DNA from: Vicinamibacterales bacterium
GTDB taxonomy: Bacteria; Acidobacteriota; Vicinamibacteria; Vicinamibacterales; UBA8438
Reading direction: 5' to 3'
Assembly: GCA_965199675.1 (NCBI GenBank)
Contig: CBDATI010000015.1
Location: 98,217-162,216, forward strand
Length of the DNA stretch: 64,000 nt
The position numbers were made by a program, and so were the translations under genes. The notes under the pieces are model-generated. The model did no database searches. It saw only the letters and a program-made list of their open reading frames with translations, and was not told the DNA's origin. This document shows positions 1,290-63,813 of the stretch, piece after piece. Position 1 is the first letter of the stretch; the number at the start of each line of letters is the position of its first letter.

Positions 1290-1488
1290 CATCGAATGCG
1301 GCTCTCGGCCGCCGATGGTCGAACGTCGCGGTCCAGACCATCGACCATCGCGGTAGCGCCCGCGTCTCCGGTCACTCCTGCGCACGAATTCGGCCGACGG
1401 CGCATCATCGGGACGCCCCCCTCGTGGCCTCCGCTCGCGGGTCGCGTTTTCGCTTTCCCCCCAATTTACCCCCCAACTCACCTCCCAT
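1290..1488 (-). pseudogene. Remnant of the N-terminus of a P4-type (DUF4102 arm domain) tyrosine integrase
   Basis: Minus-strand pieces MGGELGGKLGGK / RPRGGRPDDAPSAEFVRR..GRYRDG / GLDRDVRPSAAESRIR* lie in shifting frames with a stop. They align to the first ~70 aa of the intact integrases (MGGKLDGNLVG..KPRGRHPENALSADFVRS..GRYCDGHGLYLDVQASGSRSWIQR). DNA around the start (ccat..tggtggaaaagcc) matches 45630-45655. Confidence 0.5.
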
Positions 1489-1862
1489 TAATGGTGGAAA
1501 AGCCGGCGCGGGGACAGACCCCTCCGCCGCCGGGTCCGCCATCGTGTTTTTGCCCGTATTCCGGGCGAAAACGCGGCTTTCGACGCCCGTCAGGACCGCC
1601 TGTACACGCCAAAACAGGGCGGACTGATCCTTCTCCCCGTTGCCGTGAGCGGCAGGCAACGATGCAACTGGTTGATGGCAGACATCTCGAAGGGGTCGTG
1701 GGTTCGGGCGCTACGCAGTTGACGCCCAGCTCCATGCACAACCAAGGAGGCCCGAAGCGTGACGCGGAGGGCGCAGTCGGCACCGGGGGGAGTCAGGGGG
1801 CGCGAATGGTCAGGTTCCCCCTGCGCTGGCGACAACGGACGGATTGACGAGGAGATTGCGAC

Positions 1863-3951
1863 ATGCGGACAGGAGTGATTTTCGCGAGAGGTCGTTGCAG
1901 AGCGCTGAAGTGGCTGGCGCTGTTCGGGGTGGTGTTCGTGCTGGGGGGCGGCTCGGGCGTCGCGCAGCCCAAGAACTACGAGATTGAGTTCGATGCTGAT
2001 CGTGTCGTCAGGGAAGGTGCGAGTACTACGATAACTGTGATGTTGTCGGCCGAAGTACCCGCAAACACGGGAAGCGACACAGTAATAGACGTCATGGTGG
2101 GTGTACGCCAACCAGGTGCCAGTGCATTCGCGGGCGCTGGTTGGGCCGCAGGCACCACGCCGGCCGAACTCAACAACGTGGATGTGACCTTCGCCGACGT
2201 AGCTACGTCGTTTACAATGAAGATTCCGAAGAACACGACCGGTAACTCTGAGCGGCTTGGGAGCAAGAAATCCATCTTGTTGCAGACAAACACGGACACC
2301 GATGCCGAGGACGAAGCTCTCGTCTTCTATGCTACAGCTGGTTCTGACTCGTCGCAGACGCCGCATGCCAGGAGCGCCCAACAGCTCATCATCGACGATG
2401 AGCAAACCCAGAGTTATGTGCTGTCCCTGCCAAAAGTCGACGGCAAGGCTCAAGACCCGACGGAAGCCGGTGACCCAGTCAAGGTGAAGCTGGAGGCCAA
2501 ACCGAAGCACGTCCAGGGCTATGCAGACCTGTACTTTCATATCGACGACAGCAAGTACGAAATCGATGCTGAAAGCCTTGGGCGCAAAAGGATAGGTAGA
2601 AGGGGCGACGACAGGGCCCCGGAGGATGGCGTGCCGGATAGTGGCCCTTTCAACGATCACACAGTCGAAATAACGGTTCCGAATAGCGACGGGGATCGGG
2701 AGTCGGACACTATCACCCTGAGTGTGCACTCGGGTCAGGCCGGAAACTCCATGCTGGAGGATTCGCTGCAGATCACAGTCAAGGACAAGGACCCGCTGCC
2801 CATGGTCACGGCGATGGTGGTGGACGACAAGGGCGAGGCCCTCGATCCGCAGCCCATGTCGGTGATGGAGGGCGAGACGGTCATGGTGAAGGTGATGCCC
2901 GTCGACAAGGACGGCAAGGTCATGAAGGCGATGGAGGACCTGTCGGTCATGCTGGCGCCGTCCTCGTCGAGCACGGCCGACGGCATGGACTACCGCATCT
3001 ACCAGGCCATCTCCGTTCCCGAAGGCATGAACTCCAGCGCGGCCGTTTCGCTGGAGCTGCTCGACAACGACGATGTGGGCGCCGAGATGCTCGTGCTCGA
3101 CGCCACCGTGTCGGGCGAAGCTGCCATCGGTTCCGGGACCGAGATGAGCGAGGCCGTGTTGTCGTTGGAGGTCAAGGACGAGACGACCCCGCTGGTCTGG
3201 GTGAAGGACGATGCCTACGACGCCATCATGATGGCCCTCGGCGACGACCCGCTGAACCCAGGCGACTCGGCCGAGATCATGACCGACGAACCTGTTCGGC
3301 CATCTGCCCATGGTGGACGTTTCGTACGGCGCCCGGGTGGAAGGCGGGGCGGTCAGCGCGTCCGCGAGCGGCGAGATGGTGATGCTGATGGCCGAAGCGG
3401 CCGGAAGCGACACCAAGGTCACGGTCATCGCCACCGCATCCATGGGCGATTCCCTGATGACGCACCAGGATCGTGCGAACGTTGCGGAACTCACGTTCCC
3501 GGTCATGGTCGAGCTCGCAGATCTCATGGTCGAGCTCATGGGCCCCGAAGACAAGAACCTCGTCGAGGGGATGTCCTACGAGATCTCGGCGATGGCGAAC
3601 CGCCCGGTCGAGATGGACACCATGGTCGAGTTGGTCCAGACCGACGGCACGGCCTCGCCGTCTGACTACACGGTCGAGCCCATCACCATCATGGCCGGCG
3701 ACAAGATGGGCATGACCACGCTGACGGTGGAACCCGACGCGATGATGGAGAACGACGGCAACATGGCGGAGATGCTGACCCTCGAAGGGCGGTTCGTCGA
3801 CGATATCAGCGGCGACACCATGCCCACCTACCCGATGAGCCTCAGCTTCTACCTGTGGGATGCCGCGGTTCCGGCCCTGCCGGTCATCGCGCAGCTCCTG
3901 CTGGCGGCGTTCCTCGCGGTCGGCGGCTACCGGCGCTACCGGCGGCGGTAG
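1863..3951 (+). pseudogene. Secreted Met-rich repeat surface protein, paralog A (Calx-beta/Ig-like repeats, C-terminal VPALP-TM-RRYRRR tail); +1 frameshift near 3281-3291
   Basis: ORF 1863..3665 is protein-like only up to ...DSAEIMTDE. ORF 3310..3951 in the next frame continues the homology. The uninterrupted paralog B (52056..) reads GEMIEIMGSALFNAAPNVTLSYSV, against AEIM / NLFGHLPMVDVSYGA here. Signal peptide MRTGVIFARGRCRALKWLALFGVVFVLGGGSGVAQP. Repeats end in ..IIDDE, ..VKDKD, ..LDNDD. Confidence 0.7.
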
Positions 3952-3987
3952 CCCGTCGTTTCGGTCGGCGGCGGCGGCTCTCCCTTG

Positions 3988-4030
3988 CCCCCTCTTTCCC
4001 GGACGCTCCGGGGAAGAGGGGGTTCTCGTT
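3988..4030 (+). terminator. Long GC hairpin downstream of surface-protein gene A (terminator-like)
   Basis: ccccctctttcccgg (3988-4002) pairs with ccggggaagaggggg (4008-4022), a 15-bp stem with one G-U, followed by ttctcgttt. A homologous hairpin follows paralog B at 51984-52018. Confidence 0.5.
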
Positions 4031-4059
4031 TGGCGGGTCGAGCAGGCGCAGCAGGCGCC

Positions 4060-4300
4060 CGGACGGTGATCATCACGCGCTTTGACGATCGCGTCGACAG
4101 CCTCAAACACGCGGATCGACGACCTTGTCGCGCGCTTCGACGGTCGCTTCGACGACGTCAACGCCCGCATCAGCGAGCTCCGCGCCGATCTTGCCCGCAT
4201 CGATGACTGGCTCGGGGCCGTCGAGATCGCCGTGGGGAAAGTGGATCAGTGCCTGCTGACCATCGACGCGTCGTGCTGCCCGGCGCCGGGGCTGACGCAC
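4060..4300 (+). pseudogene. Degenerate copy of the small coiled-coil gene found intact at 51528..51827
   Basis: Pieces in three frames read ..ITRFDDRVDSL / NTRIDDLVARFDGRFDDVNARISELRADLARIDDWLGAVEIAVGKVDQCLLTID / RRVVLPGAGA. They match NARIDDLRSELNARMDRIE...RNVEIAFAKVDQRLLTIERVVLPGAEQ. No N-terminal TM segment is recoverable. Confidence 0.4.
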
Positions 4301-7673: not shown

Positions 7674-10410
7674 ATGGTGCGAGCCGTCGCCGCCGCCCTG
7701 GTCGCGGTGCTGGTCGGGGCCGTCCCCGCCGGCGCCGGTGCGCCCGGCCCGCGCCTGCTTTCCCCGGGGGGGACCCCGGTGGAGAGCACTGCGCCCGCCG
7801 CGGGCGGGATCTCGGCGGCGAGCGCTGCGTCCGCCGCGGGCGGGACTCCGGCGCAGCGTGCGGCGCCCGCCGCGGGCGGGACTCCGGCGCAGATCGCTGC
7901 GCCTGCCGCGGGCGGGACCCCGGCGCAGAGCGCTGCGCCTGCCGCGGGCGGGACCCCGGCGCAGCGTGCGGCGCCGGCGCGGTCGCCGCAACGCGCTCTC
8001 CTCGATCGGTACTGCGTCACCTGCCACAACCAGCGGCTGCAGACGGGCGGACTCGCCCTCGACGTCGCAGACGTGTCGCGCGTCGGCGACGCCCCCGACC
8101 TCTGGGAGCGGGTGGTCCTGAAGCTGCGCGGTGGCATGATGCCGCCGGCCGGCCGGCCGCGTCCCGACGGGCCGGCTCTCGGCGCGCTGCGCGGGTGGCT
8201 CGAGGCCGAGCTCGACCGCACCGCCGCCGCGACCGTCGAACCGGGTCGCGTGCCCACCCACCGCCTGAACCGGGCCGAGTACGCCAACGCCGTCCGCGAC
8301 CTCCTCGCGCTCGAGATCGATGCCGAGGCGCTGCTGCCGGCCGACGACACCGGCCACGGGTTCGACAACCTCGCGGGCACCCTCGCACTCTCGCCGGCCC
8401 TGATGGAGCGCTACCTGTCGGCGGCCCGGCGCATCAGCCGCCTGGCCGTCGGCGATCCCGCCATCGGGCCGGGCCTGACCTCGCGCACCTACACCGTCCC
8501 GATCGCGATGACCCAGAACGACCGCATGAGCGAGGCGCTGCCGTTCGGGTCGCGCGGCCGGCTCGCGGTGCGGCACCGCTTTCCCCTCGACGGCGAGTAC
8601 GTCTTCACCGTCCGGCTGAAGCGGAGCGTCTATGAGTACATCGTCAACCTCGACGAGGCCCACGACCTCGACGTGCGGATCGACGGCCGGCGGGTGGCCC
8701 GGTTCACCGTGGGCGGGGCGGCGCCGGGGAAGCCGGCCCCGGTCAGCTTCTCGGGCACGTTCGTGGCGGCCGGGGCCTCGGCCTACCCGACCCAGGACTG
8801 GGACGACTACCGGACCGGGGCCGACGCGGACCTCGTCGTGCGCGTCCCGGTTCGGGCCGGCGCCCGGGTCGTCGGGGTGGCGTTCGCCGACAGGTCGTGG
8901 GAGCACGAGGGTGTGCTGCAGCCCGATCTCCGGGAGTACGGCGCCACCGTCACCGAGACCACCGACACGTCGACCCGACCCGAGGGACCCGGCCTGGAGA
9001 GCGTGACGGTCGACGGACCCTACGCGGCGACGGGACCGGGCGAGACCGCGAGCCGGTCGCGCATCTTCGTCTGTCGGCCCGACGGCGCGGACGCCGGCGG
9101 GGAGGCCTGCGCCCGGTCGATTCTCGCCCGCCTCGCCCGGCGCGCGTACCGCCGGCCCGTGGGTGCCGCCGACCTCGACCCGCTGCTCGCCTTCTACCGC
9201 GAGGGACGGACGACCCACCGGGAGGGCAGCGCGGCGGACCCCGCGCAGGGACGGGAGGCGGCGGGCTTCGAGGCGGGCATCCAGAGCGCGATCGAGCGTC
9301 TCCTCATCGACCCCGAGTTCCTCTTCCGCATCGAGCGCGACCCGGCCGGCGTGGCCCCCGGTGCGCCCTACCGGCTCACCGACCTGGAGCTCGCCTCGCG
9401 GCTGTCGTTCTTCCTCTGGAGCAGCATTCCCGACGACGAGCTCCTCGACCTCGCGGCGCGGCGCCGGCTCTCTGACCGCGGCGTGCTCCAGGGCCAGGTG
9501 CGGCGCATGCTGGCGGACGCCCGCGCGTCGGCCCTCGTCGACAACTTCGCCGGCCAGTGGCTGTCCCTGCGCAGTGTCGAGGGCATCGCGCCCGACCCGA
9601 ACCTCTTCCCCGGCTTCGACGAGAACCTGCGCGAGGCGTTGCGGCGCGAGACCGAGCTGTTCTTCGAGAGCCAGCTTCGCGAGGACCGCAGCGTCGTCGA
9701 GCTGCTCTCGGCCGACTACACGTTCCTGAACGAGCGGCTGGCCCGGCACTACGGTATTCGCGGCATCGCCGGCAGCCGCTACCGGCGGGTGACCCTGGCC
9801 GACAAGGGACCCGCCGCGGCCCGGCGCCTCGGCCTGCTCGGCCACGGCAGCATCCTCGCCGTGACCTCCTACGGCAACCGCACCTCGCCGGTGCTCCGGG
9901 CGAAGTGGCTGCTCGAGAACGTGCTGGGGACGCCGCCCGCCCCGCCCCCCGCCGGACATCCCGCCCCTGCCCGCGGGGGGCGAGTCGGGCGAGCCGCGCA
10001 CGGTGCGCGAGCGGCTCTCGCGGCACCGGGCGAACCCCGCCTGCGCCGCCTGCCACGCGCCGATGGACCCGCTGGGCTTCGCGCTCGAGAACTTCGACGC
10101 CATCGGCCGGTGGCGGACGAGCGACGCAGGGCTGCCCGTCGACGCCTCGGCCGTCCTCGCCGACGGGCTCACCACGTTCGAGGGCCCCGGCGGGCTGCGG
10201 CGGGTGCTGCTCGACCGCTCGGACCAGTTCGTCGAGACGGTGGCCGAGAAGCTGCTCGTCTATGCCCTCGGTCGCGGCGTCGAGTCGCACGACCGCCCGG
10301 TCATTCGCAGCATCGTGCGGGCCGCGGCGGCCGACGACCACCGGTGGTCGTCGCTCGTCCTGGGCATCGTCGAGAGCGCGCCGTTCCGGATGCGGAGGTC
10401 GGAGTCATGA
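7674..10410 (+). pseudogene. DUF1592/DUF1595/DUF1588/DUF1585-family protein with N-terminal CxxCH (copy 1); frameshift in a C6 run near 9945-9950
   Basis: Collinear with the intact paralog 21469..23877 (LLDRYCVTCHNQRL..., FFLWSSIPDDELLDLA, DNFAGQWL, SYGNRTSPVLRAKWLLENVLGTPP). After GTPPAPPP the frame is nonsense. The DUF1585-like end (DIPPLPAGGE..RERLSRHRANPACAACHAPMDPLGFALENFD...) continues in the next frame as ORF 10003..10410. Confidence 0.7.
7787..7972 (+). repeat. 36-bp tandem repeat (~5 units) encoding (A/S)PAAGGTPAQxA in the linker after the signal peptide
   Basis: Protein reads APAAGGISAASA ASAAGGTPAQRA APAAGGTPAQIA APAAGGTPAQSA APAAGGTPAQRA. The paralog at 21469 lacks this block. 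Confidence 0.8.
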
Positions 10411-11779
10411 TCATCACGAGGAAGGCGCTGCCCCGGCGGACGGTGCTGCGCGGGGTCGGGGCGGCGGTGGCCCTGCCCCTGCTCGACGGCATGGTGCCGG
10501 CGGCGACCGCCCTCGCCCGGACCGCGGCGCGGCCGGTTCCCCGGTTCGGCGTCGTCTACATCCCCAACGGGGTCGTCCTCGACGAGTGGACCCCCGCCGA
10601 TGTGGGCGCGGGGTTCGCGTTCTCGCCGATCCTCGCGCCCCTCGAGCCGTTCCGCGACCGGGTGCTGGTGCTGAGCGGCCTCACCCAGAACGTGAACGGC
10701 CTGACCGCGCGGAGCGGGGCGGTGCACGGCCGCTGCGCGACGAAGTTCCTCACCGGCGCCATCCCCCGGCCGTTCGGGCAGGAGGGCAACGACTTCCTCG
10801 CCGACGTCTCGCTCGACCAGCTCGTCGCGCGGGAGATCGGCGGGGAGACGCCCATCGGCTCGCTCGAGCTGTCGCTGGAGTCGGGCGACAAGGGGGCGGG
10901 GACCTGCGACGGCGGCTACAGTTGCACCTACAGCCACACCATCTCGTGGCGCGGGCCGCGCACCCCGCTGCCGATGGAGCACAACCCGCGGGTGGTGTTC
11001 GAGCGGATGTTCGGCGACGGCGGCAGCACCGACCCCGCCGCACGGCGGGCGCGGGCTGCGCGTCGCCGCAGCCTCCTCGACTCGGTCCGCGGCAAGGCGG
11101 CCGACCTGAGGCGCGGCCTCGGCCCGAGCGACGCGGCCCGGCTGGGCGAGTACCTCGACGCGGTGCGCGACATCGAGCGGCGCATCCAGCGGGCCGAGGC
11201 GCAGTCGGCGCGCGAGCTGCCGGCGTTCGACCAGCCGGCGGGGGTTCCCGCGGGCTTCGCCGACCACGCGCGGCTCATGTTCGACCTGCAGGTGCTCGCG
11301 TGGCAGAGCGACCTGACCCGGGTCATCACGTTCATGGTCGGCCGCGAGTTCAGCAGCCGCACCTATCCCGAGATCGGCGCCCCCGGCGGGCACCATCCGC
11401 TGTCGCACGAGGGCAGCGCGGCGAGCCGCGAGCAGCTCGTCCGCATCAACCGGCACCACGCCGAGCAGTTCGCCTACTACCTCGACCGGTTGGCCGCGAC
11501 CCCCGACGGCGACGGGACGCTGCTCGATCACGCCGTCGTCTACTACGGGGCGGGCATGGCCGAGGGCGACCACCGGCCGTGGAACCTGCCGCTGGTGGTG
11601 GCTGGCGGCGGCGGGGGACGGCTCGCGGGCGGCCGGCACATCCGGTATGCGGGCGCGACGGGGGGCGGTCGGTCGGTCGACGGGGGCACCCCCTCGCGAA
11701 TCTGCACGTGACGGTACTAGAGAAGCTGGGCATGCGCGTCGACCGCCTCCACGACAGTACGGGGCGGCTGGACTTGTAG
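10407..11779 (+). pseudogene. DUF1552-family Tat-exported protein (copy 1); frameshift near 11655-11685
   Basis: ATGA overlap with the upstream stop. MIITRKALPRRTVLRGVGAAVALPLLDGMVP matches the paralog MFITRTHLPRRTVLRGLGATVALPLLDAMVP. The conserved end HPLANLHVTVLEKLGMRVDRLHDSTGRLDL* lies in another frame ending at 11779. G6 and G5/C5 runs occur at the shift. Confidence 0.7.
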
Positions 11780-21468: not shown

Positions 21469-23877
21469 ATGCTGAAGCGAGGCATCGGCGCGGCGCTGGT
21501 GGTGGGAGTGGCCCTCGTGGCGTGGCCGTCGGCCGCGGCGGGCGGTCAGGCCGGGGCCGGGCCGCCGTCGCGCGCGCTCTTCGACCGCTACTGCGTCACC
21601 TGCCACAACCCGCGCCTGCTGACCGGCGGGCTCGACCTCGGCGAGGTGGATCCCGCACAGACCGCGGCCCATGCGCCGGTCCTCGAGCGGGTCGTCCACA
21701 AGCTGCGCACGGGGCAGATGCCCCCCGAGGGGCGTCCGCGCCCCGACCGGGCCGAGATCGACGCGTTCGTGACCCGCCTCGAGCACGCCCTCGATGAGGT
21801 GGCGGCGGCCGACCCGAACCCGGGCCGCGTGGCGTCGCGGCGGCTGAACCGCGTCGAGTACGTCAACGTCATCGAGGACCTGCTGGGCCTCGAGGTCAAC
21901 GGCGAAGAGCTGCTGCCGTCGGACATGGCGGGGTTCGGCTTCGACAACAATGCCGAGGTGCTGTCGATCACGCCGGGGCTGATGGCCCGCTACATCGCGG
22001 CCGCCACCAAGATCAGCCGGGCCGCGGTGGGCAGCCCCGACATCCGCCCCGTCATGCAGCTCTACGAGGTGGGCTACGAGCAGCGCGATGTGCGGGCCGG
22101 CGAGGACCTGCCCTTCGCGACCCACGGCGGGCTCGCGGTGCGCCACCACTTCCCCCTGGACGGCGAGTACCGCTTCGCCGTCCGGCTCAAGCGCAACGAG
22201 ACCATCGAGACCATCGACGGCATCGCCGAGAACGAGCACCAGATCGAGATTCGCATCGACCACGCCCTCGTCGAGCAGTTCGCCATCGGGGGCCGGTACC
22301 CCGGCCCCGACCCCGGCTCGCTCATCGCGGTGCCCGAGGACGATGTCGAGGGGCAGCGGCTGCACGAGTACCGGATGACCGCCGACCGTGCGCTCGAGGT
22401 GCGGGCTCGGGTCGAGGCGGGCACCCGGCTGCTGTCGGTCGCATTCACCGACTCGGCGCCGTCCCCGCATCCGCCGGGGCTGCTGCCGGGCATCCACCAG
22501 GTCTTCGTCTCCGGGCCGTTCGACGGCGAAGTGCCCGGCGACACCCCCAGCCGCCGGCGAATCTTCACGTGCTACCCGGAGGGCGCCGCCGACGAGGAGC
22601 CTTGCGCGCGCGCCATCATCGGCCAGCTCGCGCGCCGCGCGTACCGCCGGCCCGTCGACTCCGACGACGTCGAGCCGCTGCTGGGCCTCTACCGCGAGGG
22701 CCGGAGCGAGCGCGACTTCGAAGCAGGGATAGAGCGGGCCCTCGAGGGCCTGCTGTCGATGCCGCAGTTCCTGATGCGGGTCGAGCGGCAGCCCGTCGAC
22801 ACCCCGGGCGGCGCCGTGTATCGGCTGAGCGACCTCGAGCTGGCGACCCGGCTGTCGTTCTTCCTGTGGAAGAGCATCCCCGACGACGAGCTGCTCGACC
22901 TGGCGGAGCGGGACGTGCTGAGCGAGCCCGACACCCTGGCCGCGCAGGTGCGCCGGATGCTCGCCGACCGGCGGGCCGCGCGGTTCATGGACGACTTCGC
23001 GGGCCAGTGGCTGCAGGTGCGGAACATCTTCTCGCAGGACCCCGACGGGGCGCTCTTCGCCGGGTTCGACGACTCGCTGCGCAAGGCGATGGTGCGCGAG
23101 ACGCAGTTGTTCTTCCAGAGCCAGGTCCGGGCGGACCGTCCCCTGCAGGACCTGCTGCGGGCCGACTACACGTTCCTCAACGAGCAGCTCGCGCGCCACT
23201 ACGGCGTGGACGACCTCTACGGCAGCCACTTCCGTCGGCACGAGTGGCGGGACGACCGCCGGCACGGGCTGCTCGGGCACGGGAGCCTGCTGACCGTCAC
23301 CTCCTACGCGAACCGGACCTCGGTGGTGCTGCGGGGCCTGTGGGTGCTCGAGACGCTGCTCGGCGCGCCGCCGCCGCCTCCGCCGCCCAACGTGCCGCCC
23401 CTGCCCGAGAGCGACCGCGCCCGGCCGACATCGCTGCGCGAGCGGATGGAGCAGCACCGCAGCAGCCCCGTCTGCTCGAGTTGCCACGCCCGGATGGACC
23501 CGCTGGGCTTCGCGATGGAGCACTTCGACGCGGTCGGACGCTGGCGCGAGCGCGACGGCGGGGCCGAGATCAACGCCACCATCGAGTGGAACGGCGCCAC
23601 CATCGACAGCCCCCGCGCGTTCCGCGAGGCGCTGCTCGCGTCGGGGCACGAGTTCGTGCACACCGTCGTGGAGAAGCTGATGATCTATGCCCTGGGCCGC
23701 GGCCTCGACTACTACGACGCCCCGACCCTGCGGCGGATCGTCCTGGATCTGGAGCACGACGACTACCGCTGGTCGTCGCTCGTGCTCGGCGTCGTCACGA
23801 GCGACCAGTTCCTGATGCGGCGCGCCCCCGAGACCGGGATGCTGGCCGACGTTCGGCTCGAGGCTCTCGATCCGTGA
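21469..23877 (+). CDS. DUF1592/DUF1595/DUF1588/DUF1585-family protein with N-terminal CxxCH (copy 2, intact)
   Basis: LFDRYCVTCHNPRL, FFLWKSIPDDELLDLA, DDFAGQWLQV, SYANRTSVVLRGLWVLETLLG, SSPVCSSCHARMDPLGFAMEHFD. GAGAGG SD lies before ATG 21469 (GTG 21460 is also possible). Confidence 0.8.
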   Translation: MLKRGIGAALVVGVALVAWPSAAAGGQAGAGPPSRALFDRYCVTCHNPRLLTGGLDLGEVDPAQTAAHAPVLERVVHKLRTGQMPPEGRPRPDRAEIDAFVTRLEHALDEVAAADPNPGRVASRRLNRVEYVNVIEDLLGLEVNGEELLPSDMAGFGFDNNAEVLSITPGLMARYIAAATKISRAAVGSPDIRPVMQLYEVGYEQRDVRAGEDLPFATHGGLAVRHHFPLDGEYRFAVRLKRNETIETIDGIAENEHQIEIRIDHALVEQFAIGGRYPGPDPGSLIAVPEDDVEGQRLHEYRMTADRALEVRARVEAGTRLLSVAFTDSAPSPHPPGLLPGIHQVFVSGPFDGEVPGDTPSRRRIFTCYPEGAADEEPCARAIIGQLARRAYRRPVDSDDVEPLLGLYREGRSERDFEAGIERALEGLLSMPQFLMRVERQPVDTPGGAVYRLSDLELATRLSFFLWKSIPDDELLDLAERDVLSEPDTLAAQVRRMLADRRAARFMDDFAGQWLQVRNIFSQDPDGALFAGFDDSLRKAMVRETQLFFQSQVRADRPLQDLLRADYTFLNEQLARHYGVDDLYGSHFRRHEWRDDRRHGLLGHGSLLTVTSYANRTSVVLRGLWVLETLLGAPPPPPPPNVPPLPESDRARPTSLRERMEQHRSSPVCSSCHARMDPLGFAMEHFDAVGRWRERDGGAEINATIEWNGATIDSPRAFREALLASGHEFVHTVVEKLMIYALGRGLDYYDAPTLRRIVLDLEHDDYRWSSLVLGVVTSDQFLMRRAPETGMLADVRLEALDP

Positions 23878-23896
23878 ACCGGGCGGCTCGACGGCG

Positions 23897-24331
23897 GTGG
23901 GCCGGAGCACGAGCGGAGGGCGTGTGCGAGAGACAGTTCGGGACTTCACCCTGGCGGTAGCGGCGTTGGCCTCGCTGTTCGCGGCGTTTCAGTCATGGAC
24001 CACGGCCCGGGACTTGACGGAAGTGCGTGAGGACTTGGCGGAAGTGCGTGAGGACTTGGCGAGGGCGCGCGAGGATCTGAGCGGCGAGGTGGCGAGGGCG
24101 CGCGAGGATCTGGGCGGCGAGGTGGCGAGGGCGCGCGAGGATCTGAGCGCCGACCTGGCGGCGGTGCGCGAAGATCTGAGCGGCGACCTGGCGGCGGTGC
24201 GCGAGGATCTGAGCGGCGACCTGGCGGCGGTGCGCGAGGACTTGGCGGAAGTGCGCGGGCAGTTGCAGACGACCACCGAGGCGATGCTCGCCCACGTCAA
24301 CGCGCCGGGGTTGCACGGCGGCGGACACTGA
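23897..24331 (+). CDS. Small membrane-anchored protein made of tandem 7-/11-residue repeats
   Basis: N-terminal TM FTLAVAALASLFAAFQSW. Then EDLAEVR x2, EDL(S/G)GEVARAR x2, EDLS(A/G)DLAAVR x3 (33-bp DNA units, 24012-24262). Start ambiguous (GTG 23897 or 23924). Confidence 0.55.
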   Translation: MGRSTSGGRVRETVRDFTLAVAALASLFAAFQSWTTARDLTEVREDLAEVREDLARAREDLSGEVARAREDLGGEVARAREDLSADLAAVREDLSGDLAAVREDLSGDLAAVREDLAEVRGQLQTTTEAMLAHVNAPGLHGGGH

Positions 24332-24437
24332 AACGGTCGGTCGGCGGCCTCAGGCTCGCGAGGCTGCCTCGCCCCGGCCGTGCGGCGTCGAGGGCTTGGC
24401 ACGGGCAAATCAACTCGGTATTCCTGGAGAGAGTGGC

Positions 24438-25787
24438 ATGTTCATCACCCGCACGCATCTGCCCCGCCGTACCGTGCTGCGCGGCCTCGGCGCCACGGTG
24501 GCGCTCCCGCTGCTCGACGCCATGGTGCCGGCCGCGACCGCGCAGAGCCGCACCGCCGCCGCGCCCATCAAGCGCTTCGGCGTGTTCTACGTCCCCAACG
24601 GCATGTCCATGCCCTACTGGTATCCGCGGCACGAGCCGGGCAAGCTGGAGACCCTGCCGCCCACTTTGCGCTCGCTCGAGCCGTTCCGCGACCGCGTGAC
24701 GATCTGCGGCGGCCTCGACGACGAGCCGGCCAACCTCGTCAAGGGCGGCGGCGACCACGCCCGGTCCGCCGGCACCTTCCTGACCTGCGTGCCCTACAAG
24801 ATGACGAACGGGGCGGACGTCTCGAACGCGGTGTCGGTGGACCAGATCGCGGCCCGTGAGCTGCAGAACGAGACCCAGCTCGCGTCGCTCGAGCTCGGCA
24901 TCGAGTCGAACGCCATGGTCGGCAACTGTGACGGCGGCGCGAGCTGCGCCTACACCAACACCATCGCCTGGCGGACGCCGACCACCCCACTGCCCATCGA
25001 GAACGACCCGCGGGCGGTGTTCGAGCGTCTGTTCGGCACCAGCGGCAGCACCGATCCCGAGGCGCGGCTGGCCCGCATGCGGCGCGACCGGAGCATCCTC
25101 GATCTCGTCAACGACGAGTTGCAGGGGTTGGGAAGGGTTCTCGGGCCGGGAGACCAGGCCAGGCTCGACGAGTACGTCGAGGCGGTCCGCGACATCGAGC
25201 GGCGGATCACGATGGCCGAGGAGCAGAGCGCCCGCGAGCTGCCGGTGGTCGACCAGCCCGTCGGGGTGCCGAGCGATTACGCCGAGCACGCCAAGCTGAT
25301 GATGGACCTGCTGGCTCTCGCCTACCAGACGGACCTCACCCGCATCAGCACGTTCATGCTCGCGCGCGAGGTGAGCGGCCGCGCCTATCCCGAGATCGGC
25401 GTGCCCGACTCGCACCACCCGCTGTCGCATCACCAGGACGAACCGGCCAAGCTGAACCGGCTGCACCTCATCAACGAGTACCACTTCCAGCAGTTCGCGT
25501 ACCTCGTGGCCAAGCTCGATGCCATCCCCGAGGGCGACGGCTCGATGCTCGATTCGACGCTGTTCCTCTACGGCACCGGCATCAGCGACAGCAACACGCA
25601 CTTCCACGACGATCTGCCCGTGGCCCTTGTCGGGGGGCAGAACGCCGGCATCACCGGCGGCCGCTACGTCCGCTATCCCCAGGACACGCCGCTCGCCAAC
25701 CTGCACGTCACGATTCTCGAGTGGCTGGGCACGCCGGTGGAGGCGTTCGGCGACAGCACGGGTCAGCTCGGCCGGTTGACCGCGTAG
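24438..25787 (+). CDS. DUF1552-family Tat-exported protein (copy 2, intact)
   Basis: MFITRTHLPRRTVLRGLGATVALPLLDAMVP. Collinear with copy 1, including HHPLSHH and the PLANLHVTILEWLG end. Confidence 0.8.
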   Translation: MFITRTHLPRRTVLRGLGATVALPLLDAMVPAATAQSRTAAAPIKRFGVFYVPNGMSMPYWYPRHEPGKLETLPPTLRSLEPFRDRVTICGGLDDEPANLVKGGGDHARSAGTFLTCVPYKMTNGADVSNAVSVDQIAARELQNETQLASLELGIESNAMVGNCDGGASCAYTNTIAWRTPTTPLPIENDPRAVFERLFGTSGSTDPEARLARMRRDRSILDLVNDELQGLGRVLGPGDQARLDEYVEAVRDIERRITMAEEQSARELPVVDQPVGVPSDYAEHAKLMMDLLALAYQTDLTRISTFMLAREVSGRAYPEIGVPDSHHPLSHHQDEPAKLNRLHLINEYHFQQFAYLVAKLDAIPEGDGSMLDSTLFLYGTGISDSNTHFHDDLPVALVGGQNAGITGGRYVRYPQDTPLANLHVTILEWLGTPVEAFGDSTGQLGRLTA

Positions 25788-34495: not shown

Positions 34496-34534
34496 GAAGG
34501 GCCGGGCCCCAATGGGCTCGGCCCCTTCGTTTGT
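34496..34534 (+). terminator. Rho-independent-type terminator after the Mo-hydroxylase operon
   Basis: gaagggccgggcc / ggctcggccccttc stem (one bulge), followed by gtttgt. Confidence 0.55.
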
Positions 34535-35045
34535 ACGGCTTCCGAACTCGACGCGGTTTGCAGGGGGCGGGCGCCCGGCGATCGGTTCGTCGGAGCCGGA
34601 CCGTCGCGCGGCTGCGCCGGTTCACATGCGCTTGTACGGCCCCCGATCTCGGACGCTGTTCCGGGGGGTGGGCGCCCGGTGATCGGTTCGTCGGAGCTAG
34701 ACCGTTGCGGGCGCGAGGCGTGCGGCGGCGTCACATGCGCTTGTACGGCCCCCGATCTTGACGCGGTTGCCGGTGGGCGGCGCCCGGCGATCGGTTCGTC
34801 GGAGCCGGACCGTCGCGCGGCTGCGTCGGTTCACATGCGCATGTACGGCCTCCGCGGTTGCCGGTGGGCGGCGCCCGGCGATCGGTTCGTCCGGAGCCGG
34901 CCGTCGCGGGGCTGCGCCGGTTCACATGCGCATGTACGGCCCCCGGTCTCGACGCGGTTTGGGGGGGCGGGCGCCCGGCGATCGGTTCGTTGGAGCCAGA
35001 CCGTCGCGGGCGCGAGGCTGCGCCGGGGTCACATGCGCTGCTCGC
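34531..35045. repeat. Tandem array of five ~90-110-bp units
   Basis: Units start with tgtacgg at ~34532, 34632, 34741, 34843 and 34932. Conserved core gggcgcccggcgatcggttcgtcggagccggaccgtcgcg..ggttcacatgcgc. Two junctions form the perfect palindrome acatgcgcatgt. Confidence 0.85.
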
Positions 35046-43515: not shown

Positions 43516-44307
43516 CTACCGTCCGCGCTGCAGGGTGCGCAGAGAGAAGAACGAGGTGTCGAGGTCGATGTCGAACTCCAGCTCGTCGTAGCGGAACGAC
43601 GTGCGTTCGCCCGGCTTGTCGGCGGGGCGCATGTCCATGACGCCGGGGACGAGGCGCCCGCCCATCTCGGTGTACTCGCTGTACTCCATGGTGCGGGCCA
43701 GCTCGCCGTCCTCGTCGTAGTACCGCGCCCAGAGCGGCATCGAGTCTCTCTGCCGGACCAGGAACGCCATGTGACCCCAGACCACCGCCGCCTCCGGCTT
43801 CGGGGTCAGGCGAAGCTCCCACACCGCGACGCCGTCGCGCTCGCCCTCGAAGGCCATCTCGACGTCGTAGTCGTCGACGAGACGGCTCTCCTTCACGAGG
43901 TCGTCGTTGGTGAAATGCGACCCCATCCACGAGCCGCCCATCATCGAGGCGGGAATCTTGATGGTGCGATCCACCTTCGGCAGGTAGTTCCAGATGTCGT
44001 CCCCCGCCATCAGGGTCGCCGTGCCCGCGTCCCGCCGCGGCGCGCGCAGGCGGACGAGCGAGTAGTCGGTGCCGAGCGACCACACCTCCATGGTCATCTC
44101 GCGCTCCCAGTGCTCGGTCACCACCTCCATCGTCGCCACGCCGCGGCTCGAGTCGCCGCGCATGAGGCGGTCGACCTGGTCGATGATGGCCATCGGGTCC
44201 GTCTGCGCGGACGCCACCGCCGCGAAGAGAACGCCGGTCACCCCCACGAGCGAAATCTGCGCCAACATTCGGAACATGCGCGTCCTCCCTGGAACCCGAA
44301 CCGTCAC
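43516..44307 (-). CDS. LolA-like outer-membrane lipoprotein-sorting protein
   Basis: Signal peptide, then IIDQVDRLMRGDSSRGVATMEV...DDIWNYLPKVDRTIKIP..MGGSWMGSHFTNDDL. This pattern belongs to the LolA-like family that accompanies FtsX/ABC pairs. Confidence 0.6.
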   Translation of the reverse strand: MTVRVPGRTRMFRMLAQISLVGVTGVLFAAVASAQTDPMAIIDQVDRLMRGDSSRGVATMEVVTEHWEREMTMEVWSLGTDYSLVRLRAPRRDAGTATLMAGDDIWNYLPKVDRTIKIPASMMGGSWMGSHFTNDDLVKESRLVDDYDVEMAFEGERDGVAVWELRLTPKPEAAVVWGHMAFLVRQRDSMPLWARYYDEDGELARTMEYSEYTEMGGRLVPGVMDMRPADKPGERTSFRYDELEFDIDLDTSFFSLRTLQRGR

Positions 44308-44425
44308 CCTATCAGTCTAGCGCAATCCGCCGCCGCAACCGTCTCCACGCGACCGGAACCGGCCCGCCCCCACACCTGACGCGCTCACGGCCCCGACTCC
44401 CCGCGCGGGGTCGGACACTCCGCCC

Positions 44426-45640
44426 TCAGTTGCCGAGGTAGCCGGCCCAGTCGTCCATCAACCGGCGGCGCCGTTCGAACAGATCCGACCGCGCATAGGC
44501 CGCCTCGACCGGATTCCGCACCGCGTGGGCAAGGGCAGCTTCGACGACTTCCCGGGGATGGTCCGTCTCCTCCGCCGCCCAGTCGCGAAAGCTCGACCGG
44601 AATCCATGCGGAACCGCGGCGATCCCGAGCTCGTTGAGCAGCCCCGACAGGGCCATGTCCTTCAACACCCCGCCCCGCGCGGTCGCGAACGCGAGCCGCC
44701 CGCCGTTGTCGAGCCTCCGCGCCGCGTCGAGAATCTCCAGCGCCCGCCGGCACAGCGGAACCCGGTGCTCGCGCTTCGCCTTCATGCGTTCGGCCGGAAT
44801 CGTCCACACGGCGCGCGCCGTGTCCATCTCGGTCCACCGCGCCCCGCGCACCTCACCTGACCTCGCCGCCGTCAGCACCAGAAACTCGAACGCCAGCTTG
44901 ACCACCCGCCTCGCGTCCGCTCTCCGCACCGCTCTGACCGCCGCCGCCACTTCCCGATGCGGCAGCGCTCGCATGTGCTGCACCCGATGCTGCTGACGCC
45001 CGAGCACCGGCCCGATGCGGTCGCACGGATTGTCGGTCCGATACTCCATCGCCATCGCCCATTCCAACACCGCTCCGATGCGCTGGCGCAGGCGCCGCGC
45101 CGTCGTCGGCCTGTCGTGCCACAGATGCTGCAGCACCTCGATCACATCGGCGCTCGTCACGTCGCACACCCTCATCCCGCCAATCAACGGAAACGCGTAG
45201 CGGGCCAGGCCCGCCAACCACGCCCGGCCGTACTTCCGGTTGCTCCAGCCCGGCGTCATCTGCCGCCAGACGCGATGCGCCGCCGCCTCGAAGGTCGGCA
45301 TGATCCGCGCCTCGCGCCTCACCGCCAGCGGGTCTCCGCCTCCTCGCGCGAGCTTCCGGTTGGCGAGCGCCTGCGTCCGCGCCTCTTCCAGTGAGACGAT
45401 CGGATAGCCCCCCAGACCCATCTCCCGCCGCCGCCCCCGTATCGTGATCCGCTGAATCCAGCTTCGGCTGCCCGACGCCTGAACATCGAGATACAGACCA
45501 TGACCGTCGCAGTAGCGTCCCGCCCCGGTCACGCTGCGCACGAAGTCCGCCGAGAGCGCGTTCTCGGGATGCCGCCCGCGCGGCTTCAGCTTGCGTCGCG
45601 CCGCCCTTCCCACCAAGTTACCATCCAATTTTCCCCCCAT
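44426..45640 (-). CDS. P4-type tyrosine integrase (DUF4102 arm domain), int1
   Basis: LSADFVRSVTGAGRYCDGHGLYLDVQASGSRSWIQRI arm domain. Catalytic ARSGEVRGARW...HRVPL...HGFRSSFRDW...AAYARSD. Confidence 0.85.
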   Translation of the reverse strand: MGGKLDGNLVGRAARRKLKPRGRHPENALSADFVRSVTGAGRYCDGHGLYLDVQASGSRSWIQRITIRGRRREMGLGGYPIVSLEEARTQALANRKLARGGGDPLAVRREARIMPTFEAAAHRVWRQMTPGWSNRKYGRAWLAGLARYAFPLIGGMRVCDVTSADVIEVLQHLWHDRPTTARRLRQRIGAVLEWAMAMEYRTDNPCDRIGPVLGRQQHRVQHMRALPHREVAAAVRAVRRADARRVVKLAFEFLVLTAARSGEVRGARWTEMDTARAVWTIPAERMKAKREHRVPLCRRALEILDAARRLDNGGRLAFATARGGVLKDMALSGLLNELGIAAVPHGFRSSFRDWAAEETDHPREVVEAALAHAVRNPVEAAYARSDLFERRRRLMDDWAGYLGN

Positions 45641-45660
45641 TTTTGGTGGAAAAGCCCGAG

Positions 45661-45690
45661 ACTATACAAAGCTCTCCGCCAACGTGTCAA
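45661..45690 (-). promoter_or_regulatory. Near-consensus sigma70-type promoter for int1
   Basis: The minus strand reads TTGACA-18 nt-TATAGT, ending 20 nt upstream of the int1 ATG. Confidence 0.35.
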
Positions 45691-45827
45691 CACGCATCTT
45701 TTCGCCTGAAATCAAGCTGTACGCCCCGCATTCCGACGCCGTCCTGGCCATTCGCGGCCACCCGAACATGGCGGACTGATCCGATTCCCCCGTTGCCGGG
45801 TGAGAGGACGAGTTCACAAGGGAGAGC

Positions 45828-46472
45828 ATGATGCGTATGGGACCGGTTTTTGCGAGAGGTAGTTGCCGGGCGCTGAGCTGGGTGGTGCTGTTCGGCTGGA
45901 TGCTGGCGCTGGGGGGAGGTACGGTCGAGGCGCAGTCACTAAAGGTGTACGTCGCGGAAGGCGACGGAACGCTGACGGTGTTTTGGGCCGGGGGTCCCGG
46001 CGACACGGTCGGATACCGGATCAAAGGCGTGGTACCCGATGACTTGAAGGAGGATCGCGGTTCGAACGAGGCGGCTGGCGCAGGCATGGTCAAGAGAACC
46101 ATCACTGGCTTGACCAACGGCGCCGTATACGTCGTGCGGGTAACGTCGGGGGCGACCTTTGGCACGATAACGGGAAGTCCAGGTAGGGCAACCGAAGACC
46201 CCAACTTCGGAGCGAGATATACGCCAGGCGACAAGCAACTGATGGTATCCTGGCCATCCAAGGCAGGCGCGATGGGTTACCTCGTTCAATACCGGGGGAA
46301 AACCGAAGTTGACCTGATGGACCACGCCATCGTCCCCGCGGGCATGACTGAGACCACCATCATGGGCTTGATCAACGCCGCGACATATGTCGTGCGGGTG
46401 ACGGCGCTGGTGGGGGGGAAAGACTCTCCGGAAGCAGATGTGTTTGGCGTAATTCCTGTTGCGAGGCCCTAT
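45828..46472 (+). pseudogene. 5' fragment of surface-protein paralog C, cut by IS5/IS1182-like copy 1
   Basis: MMRMGPVFARGSCRALSWVVLFGWMLALGGGTVEAQ signal matches paralog A. The FN3-like body is ~85% identical by eye to paralog B up to ..FGVIPVARP, where the IS inverted repeat begins. Confidence 0.75.
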
Positions 46473-47972
46473 CAGCCCGTGGAAAAAGTCGGCAAATTCG
46501 GGCCGATCGGGTCGATCTGAGTGGTTGTAGTGTCGTAGACTTCACAGCATGGCGATGGGCAAGAGGCCGGCGGCTCGACCGGCGCCACCGATGTGGGTGA
46601 CGGCAGAGGACCTTCCCAAGAGTGCGGGGCATCCCTTCTTCGAGCGGCTGAATCGGATTCTGGAGAAATCCAGGTTCGACGCTTTCGTGGAGGGGTTGTG
46701 TGCGGTCTTCTACGCGGAGCGAATGGGTCGTCCGAGTCTGCGACCCGGGCGGTATTTCCGGCTTCTGTTCATCGGGTATTTCGAGGGTCTGTCATCGGAG
46801 CGCGCGATTGCGTGGCGGGTCGCGGATTCGCTGAGCCTGCGGGCTTTCCTGGATCTGGACGTGACGGAGGCGACGCCGAACCACTCGACGCTGTCACGGA
46901 CTCGGCGTCTGATCGACGTGGAGACGCACGCGGCGGTGTTCACGTGGGTGCTGGAGCGGTTGTCGGAAGCGGGTCTGGTGAAGGGGAAGACGATCGGGGT
47001 GGACGCGACGACGCTGGAAGCGAACGCGGCGATGCGGAGCATCGAGCGTCGGGATACGGGGGACTCGTACGACGCGTTCGTGCGGGGGCTGGCGGAGGCA
47101 TCTGGCATTGCGACGCCGACGCGGGCGGAGTTGGCGCGTTTCGACCGTTCGCGGAAGGGCCGGAAGACGTCGAATGAAGAGTGGACGTCTCCGCAGGACC
47201 CGGACGCGAAGATCGCGAAGATGAAGGACGGTCGGACGCATCTGGCCCACAAGGCGGAGCACGGTGTCGACCTGGAGACGGGAGCGCTCCTGTCGGTGAC
47301 GGTTCAGGACGCGTCGGAGGGTGATACGGCGACGCTGCCGGAGACGCTGACGAAGGCGGCGGAGCAGGTGGAGGCGGTTCAGCCTGACGGTGAGGGCGTC
47401 GAAGAGGTGGTGGCCGACAAGGGGTATCACAGCGACGCGACGCTGGTGGCGCTCGACGACCTTGGTGTACGCAGCTACATCGCGGAGCCGGCGCGTGGTC
47501 GGCGCGTCTGGCAGGACAAGAAGACGGGTGAGACGCCGCCGGAGAAGCGTGCTGCGCAGTCGGCGCTGTATGGGAATCGTCGGCGTATTCGCGGGGACCG
47601 GGGCCGTCGTCTCCAACGCTGCCGGGGGGAACTGGTGGAGCGGCCTTTCGCTCACCAGTATGAGACCGGGGGTCTGCGTCGGGTGTGGGTGCGCGGCCAT
47701 GAGAATGTCCGCAAGCGGGTGCTGGTCCAGGCGGCGGGCTGCAACCTGGGTCTGTTGCTGCGCCGCCTGACGGGCGTCGGTACGCCCCGGAGCCTGCAGG
47801 GGCGGGCTCTTTCGGCGATTCTCGGGCTGATCGAACGCCTCATGGGCCTCTGGGGGCGTCTGAACGGCCTCTGGAGGGCCAAATGGGCTCCGGTCGCCCC
47901 CTGGGGCTCAGCCGCTCGTCCCCAAGCTGCTTGAACAGGCCCGCTCAGCGAACCGACTTCGTCCACGGGCTG
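46473..47972 (+). mobile_element. IS5/IS1182-like element, copy 1 (1500 bp)
   Basis: Inverted repeats cagcccgtggaaaaagtcgg / cagcccgtggacgaagtcgg (reverse complement). The transposase is identical to copy 2. Flanks ctat / tcag do not match, so there is no TSD. Confidence 0.85.
46549..47934 (+). CDS. IS5/IS1182-family DDE transposase
   Basis: N-terminal InsH-like region (HPFFERLNRIL...GRPSLRPGRYFRLLFIGYFEGLSSER). DDE region (..GVDATTLEANA...VADKGYHS...RVLVQAAGCNL). Confidence 0.8.
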   Translation: MAMGKRPAARPAPPMWVTAEDLPKSAGHPFFERLNRILEKSRFDAFVEGLCAVFYAERMGRPSLRPGRYFRLLFIGYFEGLSSERAIAWRVADSLSLRAFLDLDVTEATPNHSTLSRTRRLIDVETHAAVFTWVLERLSEAGLVKGKTIGVDATTLEANAAMRSIERRDTGDSYDAFVRGLAEASGIATPTRAELARFDRSRKGRKTSNEEWTSPQDPDAKIAKMKDGRTHLAHKAEHGVDLETGALLSVTVQDASEGDTATLPETLTKAAEQVEAVQPDGEGVEEVVADKGYHSDATLVALDDLGVRSYIAEPARGRRVWQDKKTGETPPEKRAAQSALYGNRRRIRGDRGRRLQRCRGELVERPFAHQYETGGLRRVWVRGHENVRKRVLVQAAGCNLGLLLRRLTGVGTPRSLQGRALSAILGLIERLMGLWGRLNGLWRAKWAPVAPWGSAARPQAA

Positions 47973-47986
47973 TCAGGGTCGAATCG

Positions 47987-48217
47987 TCACTCGGAGTTAT
48001 CCAGGGGCGACCCGGCGACGGCGCGCTTCAGCAGGTGCAGGGCGTCGGGGCCGATCCCGGTAGCGGTCTCGATGGTGGGCCAGGGGACACCGGCGCGAAG
48101 CAGGTCTTCGACCATCTTCACCTGTGCCTCCTGGCGTCCCTCCTGACGCCCCTCTTGGCGTCCCTGCTGACGGCCCTCCTGGCGTCCCTGCTGGACGAGT
48201 TGTTCGGCGTAGTCCAT
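47987..48217 (-). CDS. Orphan duplicate of the Rpn C-terminal domain (76 aa)
   Basis: MDYAEQLVQQ(GRQx)5..AQVKMVEDLLRAGVPWPTIETATGIGPDALHLLKRAV. It starts at the same internal Met as in the full-length Rpn. Homology to the full gene ends near 48287, and upstream indels break the longer frame. Confidence 0.55.
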   Translation of the reverse strand: MDYAEQLVQQGRQEGRQQGRQEGRQEGRQEAQVKMVEDLLRAGVPWPTIETATGIGPDALHLLKRAVAGSPLDNSE

Positions 48218-57932: not shown

Positions 57933-57935
57933 GCC

Positions 57936-63761: not shown

Positions 63762-63813
63762 TATGGAGGCGGACGCTATGCCAGTGGACGCACGTGGGCC
63801 CGGATGCGCATAG

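Follow-up and report, generated by a model that had tools for sequence, protein, structure and literature searches.

Why should a tyrosine integrase stand head to head with an adhesin-like gene again and again within one stretch of bacterial DNA? The stretch in question (64,000 nt, ~70% G+C, hereafter the window) comes from a Vicinamibacterales bacterium (Acidobacteriota; GCA_965199675.1, contig CBDATI010000015.1, 98,217–162,216 of the forward strand). A sequence-only reading of the window had picked out three places where a P4-type integrase, a methionine-rich surface gene, a hairpin and a small coiled-coil gene recur, and had found the arrangement unassignable to any described system; a small integrative adhesin island that had accreted several times was among the possibilities it offered. 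The arrangement does fit tandem, site-specific, integrase-borne genomic islands, and an accreted adhesin island is essentially what the linkage and junction evidence shows. We consider it probable that the loci are ends and junctions of such islands, which inserted in tandem and site-specifically, with the 5′ leader of a surface-protein gene family as their target.

Shared blocks between integrases and surface genes

The repetition of parts at three loci was confirmed by self-BLAST of the window, which also added a fourth paralogue (D) of the surface gene. Positions 1294–1645 match 45454–45798 in the same orientation (69.7% over 357 nt, E = 1e-25), covering an integrase 5′ end and the intergenic DNA. 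Three further segments, 3664–3783, 3848–4025 and 4195–4288, match the reverse complement of 52328–52209, 52159–51981 and 51639–51545 (71–81%, E down to 3e-39); together they span the 3′ end of surface gene A (its last ~100 codons), the hairpin and the coiled-coil gene (3664–4288 versus minus-strand 51545–52328). Surface gene C (46090–46469) matches the reverse complement of 56381–55990, an internal part of surface gene B (86%), and 61896–62183 of surface gene D matches 55791–55516 of B (71% DNA identity). The principal parts are as follows.

~1212–1500, − strand: 5′ remnant of a decayed P4-type integrase, recognized by DNA homology to the int1 5′ end and the DNA upstream of it
1618–1645, + strand: putative attachment (att) core 1, left direct repeat, GGCGGACTGATCC plus ~15 conserved nt
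1745–1967, + strand: conserved surface-gene 5′ block, 118-nt leader plus signal-peptide codons
1863–3951, + strand: surface gene A, open reading frames (ORFs) 1863–3665 and 3310–3951, frameshift at ~3289/3290
44426–45640, − strand: int1, intact P4-type tyrosine integrase (Pfam Arm-DNA-bind_3, Phage_int_M and Phage_integrase)
45661–45690, − strand: sigma-70-like promoter facing int1, TTGACA-18-TATAGT, 11 of 12 matches, the sole such site in 44300–52200
45770–45797, + strand: putative att core 1, right direct repeat, 129 nt upstream of the int1 start
45828–46469, + strand: surface gene C, 5′ fragment of 214 codons with signal peptide and FN3 (Pfam fn3), joined to an insertion sequence (IS) at 46470
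49902–51179, + strand: int2, intact integrase with Pfam domains, likely start ATG at 49995
52056–53994, − strand: surface gene B, 3′ part, conserved Ig-like region and IPTL-CTERM-like tail
55498–56435, − strand: surface gene B, middle part, FN3 domains (Pfam fn3, E = 4e-24), without the 5′ end
~61600–62339, + strand: surface gene D, fragment of the fourth paralogue, cut by an IS256-type element

Both int1 and int2 score above the cut-offs for PF13356, PF22022 and PF00589, the arm-binding, central and catalytic domains, and their translations hold the catalytic motifs TAARSGE (Arg), HGFRSSFRDW (His-x-x-Arg) and AAYARSD (Tyr). The two genes are inverted copies, int1 44433–45588 matching the reverse complement of int2 51145–49996 with 76% DNA and 73.6% protein identity. 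The NCBIfam integrase model PRK09692 gave 145 bits against a cut-off of 434. The integrase remnant that had been proposed near 1290 is visible as DNA homology, while its protein survives only as scraps (DDAPSAEFV, PADRIGP). A 10-nt inverted repeat, TTCCCACCAA and TTGGTGGAAA, brackets the int1 start codon (45607–45652). In related loci the GGTGGAAA motif recurs shortly before the start of many integrases, as well as next to the core in remnants without an integrase; it may be an operator.

The sequence-only reading had also noted an intergenic block common to two of its sites. This block holds up: the window has just two exact copies of GGCGGACTGATCC, at 1618 and 45770 and both on the + strand, and the block is best read, from its distribution and flanks, as the att core of int1-like integrases. 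For comparison, 65 loci from 21 Vicinamibacterales genomes were fetched around relatives of the surface protein (loci are cited by L numbers), and int1, the 99-aa coiled-coil protein and the conserved 5′ and 3′ surface-gene DNA blocks were mapped on them. GGCGGACTGATCC is present in 25 of 67 loci, and all 32 of 32 curated occurrences are co-oriented with a surface gene, 60–310 nt upstream of its ATG. When copies are anchored on this block, similarity stops abruptly at its left edge and runs on for ~10–16 more conserved bases on the right. The left flanks form discrete types, being either a non-coding region that we call X or integrase-proximal arms; the right flanks also form discrete types, and the left and right types combine in many ways. 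For example, the right flank R2 follows X and the core in L045 versus an integrase arm and the core in L011, L027 and L036, with homology beginning at the first G of the block.

Of 37 integrases with an identity to int1 of 63% or more, 20 have core 1 upstream, and in 18 the spacing from the start codon is 129–162 nt; the set includes the independently sampled loci L068, L072 and L075, reached from the integrase side and from the coiled-coil side. At this spacing core 1 was never found in integrase clades at most 59% identical to int1. For int2 there is at best a degenerate core-1 candidate, GGTCCGACTATCCGCGCATTCC, ~100 nt upstream. In one assembly an 11-kb segment is present in two copies (99.98% identical), one adjoining X and its counterpart an integrase arm; the change of flank falls ~20 nt 3′ of the block. 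These two copies, L028 and L029, are both ends of the 6.6-Mb contig CBDEVO010000003.1 (GCA_965243615.1), with the 11-kb surface-gene segment inverted between them; the duplicate could stem from a long inverted duplication, or the assembly may have been broken by population heterogeneity.

Region X comprises ~270 nt of conserved non-coding DNA with two TTGCGC-N17/18-TGTTACGCT motifs (L024 8560–8826 and 10 other loci). Of the 21 genomes, 11 gave a full-length X, in each case as a single copy shortly before a surface gene; it is uninterrupted and holds both of the cores described here in L019, L023, L024, L029, L045 and others. A short hairpin 3′ of the second motif varies in sequence between genomes and keeps its pairing, and the seven X copies differ too little for covariation to be seen. 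Because a sigma-70 promoter scan of X found no site that meets the criteria, we call X promoter-like from a reading of the conserved TGTTACGCT motifs alone. The core regions fold no better than shuffled sequences (z = −0.5 and +0.3). A known RNA gene in X or the core block was ruled out, as neither gave an ARAGORN or Rfam match at gathering or relaxed thresholds, and ARAGORN detected neither tRNA nor tmRNA, whether at the X loci or anywhere in the window.

A sister integrase clade, 53–56% identical to int1, goes with a second core inside X, the 9-bp CCATATGCG, 46 nt upstream of core 1. An intact attB (...ggctaaaga CCATATGCG gagcggacgatagg...) is seen where X is uninterrupted, in L024 and other genomes. 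A 6.4-kb segment in L055, with one surface gene and a convergent integrase, and a 7.9-kb segment in L034, with two surface genes and a convergent integrase, have CCATATGCG on both sides; at both loci the left junction reads X, core and island arm, and the right junction integrase arm, core and the rest of X. Judged from these junction sequences, attB, attL and attR are all present for the sister clade, and the trio is a classical signature of site-specific integration, which gives the unit as a surface gene and, further on, an integrase enclosed between two cores, the 5′ end of the integrase facing the core. Core 2 with the island arm is also joined to three other left flanks (L027, L044/L046 and L004). 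Two genomes share the 5.3-kb L044/L046 unit, a surface gene with a convergent integrase, at 97% identity, and its surroundings differ between them. A search by exact k-mers for direct repeats of the L046, L001 and L049 islands yielded nothing convincing, and the L046 junction was later accounted for by core 2.

The linkage between integrase and surface gene extends beyond this contig. Among 82 non-redundant surface-gene 5′ ends in the 21 genomes, 31 have a divergent integrase at most 1.5 kb upstream and three have one further off, with IS insertions between, while 15 have another surface gene in tandem upstream. Convergent surface-gene/integrase pairs are also common, and arrays in which surface genes alternate with convergent integrases (surf> <INT surf> <INT) recur (L027, L031, L034, L049 and L055). 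The int1 family as a whole is very large (7720 matches at E ≤ 1e-60); other members lie at one end of an island, with cargo on their 3′ side, in tandem (L069). Among the 3′ flanks of 48 integrases, no general conserved att was found beyond the stop codon.

Reading of the window as island junctions, and its rivals

If the loci are island junctions, one end of each island would carry a surface gene right behind the att core, encoding a signal peptide, a variable FN3/He_PIG-type domain, ~650 Ig-like residues and an IPTL-CTERM-like anchor. The other end would carry a P4-type integrase with its 5′ end towards the other core copy, and optional cargo would lie between the two. In the excised circle, integrase and surface gene would stand head to head around attP. 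In an array, each integrase would adjoin the surface gene of the next island, its own surface gene lying at the far end of the island; the integrase would abut its neighbor's surface gene because att lies between the two, in the leader. The head-to-head integrase/adhesin pair described in the sequence-only reading is therefore a real arrangement, but with att between its members it would be an attP-like junction of neighboring islands and not a unit.

Applied to the window, int1, its promoter and the core at 45770 would form the right end of an island, and the decayed integrase before 1618 would be part of a degraded island to the left. Both int1 and int2 presumably act on core 1, and the extent of the islands in the window and their current mobility are likewise presumptive. 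On the simplest reading, the core at 1618 and surface gene A may be the left end of a single 44-kb island (1631–45769) that ends at int1. We hold this at somewhat below an even chance because the interior genes include no transfer functions; besides two paralogous PSCyt/PSD-DUF1552 sets and a DUF6282 hydrolase, they encode an ankyrin-cytochrome c protein, a MacB/LolA-like transporter, an enzyme of xanthine-dehydrogenase type and one IS630-type transposase. The predicted attP of this putative island would read ...GGCCACCCGAACAT-GGCGGACTGATCC-TTCTCCCCGTTGCCGTGAGCGG, and its empty site ...ACACGCCAAAACAG-GGCGGACTGATCC-GATTCCCCCGTTGCCGGGTGAG. Surface gene C would be part of the next island rightward, truncated by an IS, and surface gene B with its terminator, the coiled-coil gene and int2 would make up a minimal island in inverted orientation. 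The integrase-proximal junction of locus B now adjoins an Rpn/YhgA-type gene.

Several observations weigh against the island reading. No sister-clade attP junction was found in an exact-pattern scan of JGI metagenomes, and an attB/attL/attR trio for the int1-like clade itself was not recovered. Core 1 is recognizable in only the 20 of 37 int1-like copies, the int2 candidate being degenerate. The frequency of linkage is overstated because the loci were picked via surface-gene homology: among three int1 homologues (70–73%) sampled from the integrase side, one adjoins a surface gene. That one (L068) is head to head with a 1236-aa surface-type gene, the second (L069) heads tandem restriction-modification islands and the third (L070) follows a Calx-beta/LRR protein. 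Within the window, 4.3–44.4 kb consists of metabolic and accessory genes without transfer functions and could be ordinary chromosome between separate junctions. Finally, L006, L009, L010 and L066 keep the integrase, the core and the divergent surface gene while the DNA past the integrase stop varies.

This last observation is a better fit to an alternative in which the divergent pair is itself mobile, as a unit of integrase (−), surface gene (+), hairpin and coiled-coil gene with att at its outer ends and the shared block as a regulatory element. Five loci (L006, L009, L010, L013 and L066) share 88–94% identity from the integrase stop through the core into the surface gene and differ in the DNA beyond, and several conserved segments of ~1.5 kb take in the integrase, the intergenic region and the surface-gene start. 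Past the integrase stop codons, however, there is no conserved sequence or repeat, and the flank types reassort exactly at the intergenic block. The direct repeats of the sister clade lie between integrase and surface gene, the island there is a surface gene with a convergent integrase, and L001/L049 and L031/L065 conserve the integrase with its 3′-side DNA instead. We regard a mobile divergent pair as improbable. An ordinary paralogous family that spread by duplication and gene conversion, with integrases nearby by chance or in a dumping ground for mobile DNA, would call for no site-specific mechanism at all. It could draw on arrays of up to eight tandem surface genes without an integrase (L043), on the many unrelated IS elements in this region of the window, and on the 5′ and 3′ blocks being conserved in all paralogues, with or without an integrase, so that leader and terminator could reflect regulation. 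The constant spacing from core to integrase, the attB/attL/attR trio with its 9-bp direct repeats, identical island ends at different sites and the divergent integrase in 31 of 82 cases make this account highly improbable.

The integrases might instead serve surface variation, the other possibility raised in the sequence-only reading, recombining cores by deletion, inversion or re-integration and thereby changing the paralogue behind an expression site at X. X is single-copy and has its two TTGCGC-N17/18-TGTTACGCT motifs just upstream of the cores; integration at CCATATGCG sets a new surface gene ~270 nt 3′ of these motifs; one assembly has the 11-kb segment joined to X or to an integrase arm; and arrays include inverted modules, with many integrase paralogues intact. 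Yet surface genes are intact in 24 of 30 cases behind integrases versus 8 of 11 next to X, and the integrase-proximal genes keep their own leader, ribosome-binding site and signal peptide, which makes them unlike silent cassettes. The intergenic regions of the window (45400–46000 and 1300–1950) have no flanking inverted repeats, only 10–13-nt repeats at chance level, and the two window cores, 44 kb from each other, are repeated in direct orientation. Not all islands lie at X, some being found at secondary sites, and the X motifs fail the promoter-scan criteria. Recombinase-driven surface variation is thus distinctly unlikely on our assessment. We also doubt, if less firmly, that X is an integron-like fixed expression site with two tandem promoters and at least two att cores in the leader, where integration or reshuffling would swap the transcribed surface protein.

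Surface proteins, small cargo and insertion sequences

The 3′ part of surface gene B is identical to database protein P0001, which has >140 relatives of ~650–1650 residues. The genomes that carry these relatives are all Vicinamibacterales metagenome-assembled genomes, and the family is restricted to this order; it is multi-copy per genome, and several members often share one contig. In the family alignment a conserved signal peptide (MRTGAIFARGSCRALKW...) is followed by a variable N-terminal region (FN3, He_PIG or Calx-beta, depending on the member), a conserved region of ~650 residues without a Pfam match and a near-invariant tail, LWDAAVPALPIIAQLLLAAFLAxGGYRRYRRR. The tail of gene A (motif VPALP...GGYRRYRRR) scores 18.4 bits with the IPTL-CTERM model TIGR04174, whose cut-off is 20.5, and 19 of 40 family members match the model at E ≤ 0.01. 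An IPTL-CTERM signal has been reported in the S-layer protein of Methylomirabilis (PMC8671808). An AlphaFold (AF2) model with a predicted local distance difference test (pLDDT) score of 75.7 is a string of all-beta beta-sandwich domains with one helix at the end, and it matches titin, cadherins, Calx-beta domains and bacterial S-layer proteins; a PDB profile search with the surface protein found Ig-like and adhesin domains. The signal peptide, the tail and the beta-sandwich matches together indicate a secreted, adhesin- or S-layer-like protein that is probably anchored at the cell surface. The proposed methionine richness was borne out, at 6.4–10.3% Met in the surface proteins versus 3.0% in int1.

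The 5′ block at 1745–1967 is 78–86% identical to >60 paralogues of other genomes, and the N-terminal domain beyond it diverges. A coding N-terminal extension in the leader was ruled out, since the short-leader class has 1-nt indels immediately ahead of the ATG. None of the surface copies A, B, C and D of the window is intact, owing to one frameshift and to IS insertions. In a blastx comparison of surface gene A with a full-length relative, the frame changes at a single point, ~3289/3290; the middle and 3′ parts of B join in register, as judged by homology to D. Elsewhere, L043 (OZ244881.1) holds eight co-oriented tandem paralogues of ~660 aa each with no integrase within 21 kb, so simple tandem arrays are another way for the family to expand.

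The hairpin and the coiled-coil gene follow the surface gene at two of the loci.

3987–4023, + strand: predicted intrinsic terminator of surface gene A, 17-bp stem and T-rich tail, −42.4 kcal/mol, z = −4.3
4079–4300, + strand: degenerate coiled-coil gene, tblastn match to the 99-aa protein, without the N-terminal membrane segment
51528–51824, − strand: coiled-coil gene, 99 aa, N-terminal membrane segment followed by 7-residue repeats, 21-nt tandem repeats
51984–52018, − strand: predicted intrinsic terminator of surface gene B, 17-bp stem, −37.1 kcal/mol, z = −5.0, homologous to 3988–4022

The hairpin, ~35 nt past the surface-gene stop codon, combines a G+C-rich stem of 17 bp with a T-rich tract behind it; family members either retain it or have another hairpin with a T tail in its place (L017, L040, L041 and L044). 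Its homology at A and B agrees with its listing as a conserved part of the module, but by its structure it is an ordinary intrinsic (Rho-independent) terminator of the surface gene.

The coiled-coil gene had been put forward as a dedicated partner, a role that its distribution contradicts. In the fetched loci it lies 3′ of the surface gene in either orientation, in 1–5 copies, or upstream of X, and it belongs to a multi-copy family of >621 small proteins in Acidobacteria genomes; it is a recurrent, optional island cargo and not a fixed partner. The degenerate copy at 4195–4288 is 80% identical in DNA to 51639–51545, and the 99-aa protein gave only weak, sub-threshold matches of DUF2730, DUF7310 and XhlA type. 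Two members examined from their own side sit in integrase-containing neighborhoods with TIR, HATPase_c_4 and sensor-kinase genes. A HATPase_c_4 fragment at the left end of the window was considered as an orthologue of the L072 cargo gene and rejected, as the two have no DNA similarity.

The right part of the window has been broken up by copies of one IS.

46470–47972, + strand: IS copy 1, 1503 bp, IS1182/IS5-like, cuts surface gene C
53995–55497, + strand: IS copy 2, 99.9% identical to copy 1, splits surface gene B
56436–56813, + strand: IS copy 3, truncated by another inserted element, at the 5′ break of surface gene B
63811–64000, + strand: IS copy 4, runs off the window end

The four copies are 99–100% identical and in one orientation, which indicates, from sequence identity, a very recent burst; three lie in surface-gene paralogues, and the IS possibly prefers surface genes. 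The terminal inverted repeats are CAGCCCGTGG, the left flanking bases TA(G/T) and the transposase domains DUF772 and DDE_Tnp_1. The IS1182/IS5 assignment is approximate because the NCBIfam IS1182 model gave 177 bits against a cut-off of 270. At 47975–48289 and 48409–49470 lie a partial duplicate of the 3′ end of an Rpn/YhgA-type gene (PD-(D/E)XK ‘recombination-promoting nuclease’) and the gene itself; the gene contains a 12-nt tandem repeat translated as (QQGRQEGR)n, and the duplicate is directly beside the IS. IS copy 3 is truncated by a two-ORF element at 56844–59552 (a DruA/DUF4338-like 356-aa ORF and a 538-aa ORF), followed by an IS66-family transposase at 59843–61285; the right-hand third of the window is crowded with IS remains.

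Towards the left, two paralogous PSCyt/PSD plus DUF1552 (HXXSHH) gene sets (7973–11557 versus 21550–25582) are 67–69% identical. The ankyrin-cytochrome c gene follows the first, and the second holds an inserted gene of 33-nt repeats (24007–24270) encoding an apolipoprotein-like coiled coil; similar sets flank integrase/surface loci elsewhere (L001, L002, L049 and L051). At 34528–35043, between a dehydrogenase operon and an unannotated ORF, five tandem non-coding units of ~91–108 nt are 79–90% identical and have no Rfam match.

Significance and comparison with known systems

The island model explains why the same parts recur in the window; that all local surface copies are dead counsels caution in inferring function from them. 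If the model is true, integrase-borne islands gathered at one defined chromosomal site are a means by which an uncultured lineage of Acidobacteriota varies its outermost proteins. The lineage may be host-associated, as some matching proteins carry sponge-metagenome-style annotations. The loci would offer a natural example of sister integrase clades using att ‘sublocations’ outside RNA genes, and of tandem accretion building multigene surface-protein arrays, possibly with promoter capture by mobile DNA. Confirmation of X as an expression site would raise the interest further, as surface variation would then be replenished horizontally from whole integrase-bearing islands and not from cassettes. 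In practice, the two cores and X can serve as markers to delimit islands in Vicinamibacterales genomes.

The loci resemble integrons in having a recombination site beside a fixed promoter-like region, with an incoming gene landing directly downstream, an integrase divergent from the first gene and a hairpin after each gene. Here, however, the integrase is P4-type with an arm-binding domain, unlike IntI, and travels with every unit, and the units are 5 to >40 kb long with their own integrase in place of promoterless single-gene cassettes. They do not form an integron, since the integrase is of the wrong type and the hairpin is a T-tailed terminator and not an attC.

Streptococcal integrative and mobilizable elements and integrative and conjugative elements accrete in tandem through integration into the att site of a resident element. 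The arrays described here would likewise have been built at a resident att, from minimal elements with little beyond the integrase; unlike in the streptococcal elements, no relaxase, oriT or conjugation genes were seen. Recombinase-driven switching of surface antigens is represented by Mycoplasma vsa/HvsR, the fim switch and shufflons. The likenesses are tyrosine recombinases beside a multigene surface family, sites in a conserved 5′ region and a single site bearing the promoter, which here would be X. In contrast to those systems, a leader, a start codon and a signal peptide come with each paralogue, the window sites are direct repeats, and no small invertible segment was found in the window; the loci are not a switch of shufflon or fim type.

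Work by Williams in 2002 is said to have placed P4/CP4-57-type islands at tRNA/tmRNA genes, with integrase subfamilies preferring sublocations. The islands proposed here share with these the Arm-DNA-bind_3/DUF4102, central and catalytic domains, an integrase at one island end, short flanking direct repeats and clades that use different positions in one target. They differ in that no tRNA or tmRNA is involved and that the integrase lies beside the downstream half of the target and not beside an intact target gene.

The closest described analogue is the set of ssrA-specific islands of Dehalococcoides, each with reductive-dehalogenase (rdhA) paralogues and arrayed in tandem at one site (McMurdie et al. 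2011, PMC3146451). Both systems would consist of many small integrase-bearing islands inserted site-specifically and in tandem at one single-copy locus, each with an integrase module beside the site and members of one paralogous cargo family, rdhA there and the surface gene here, and both would be a major source of strain diversity. The target here is no tmRNA or tRNA but the non-coding promoter-like region and leader of the cargo family's own gene. A cargo paralogue lies right behind the core, at the integrase-distal end of the island, and at least two integrase clades use two cores 46 nt apart.

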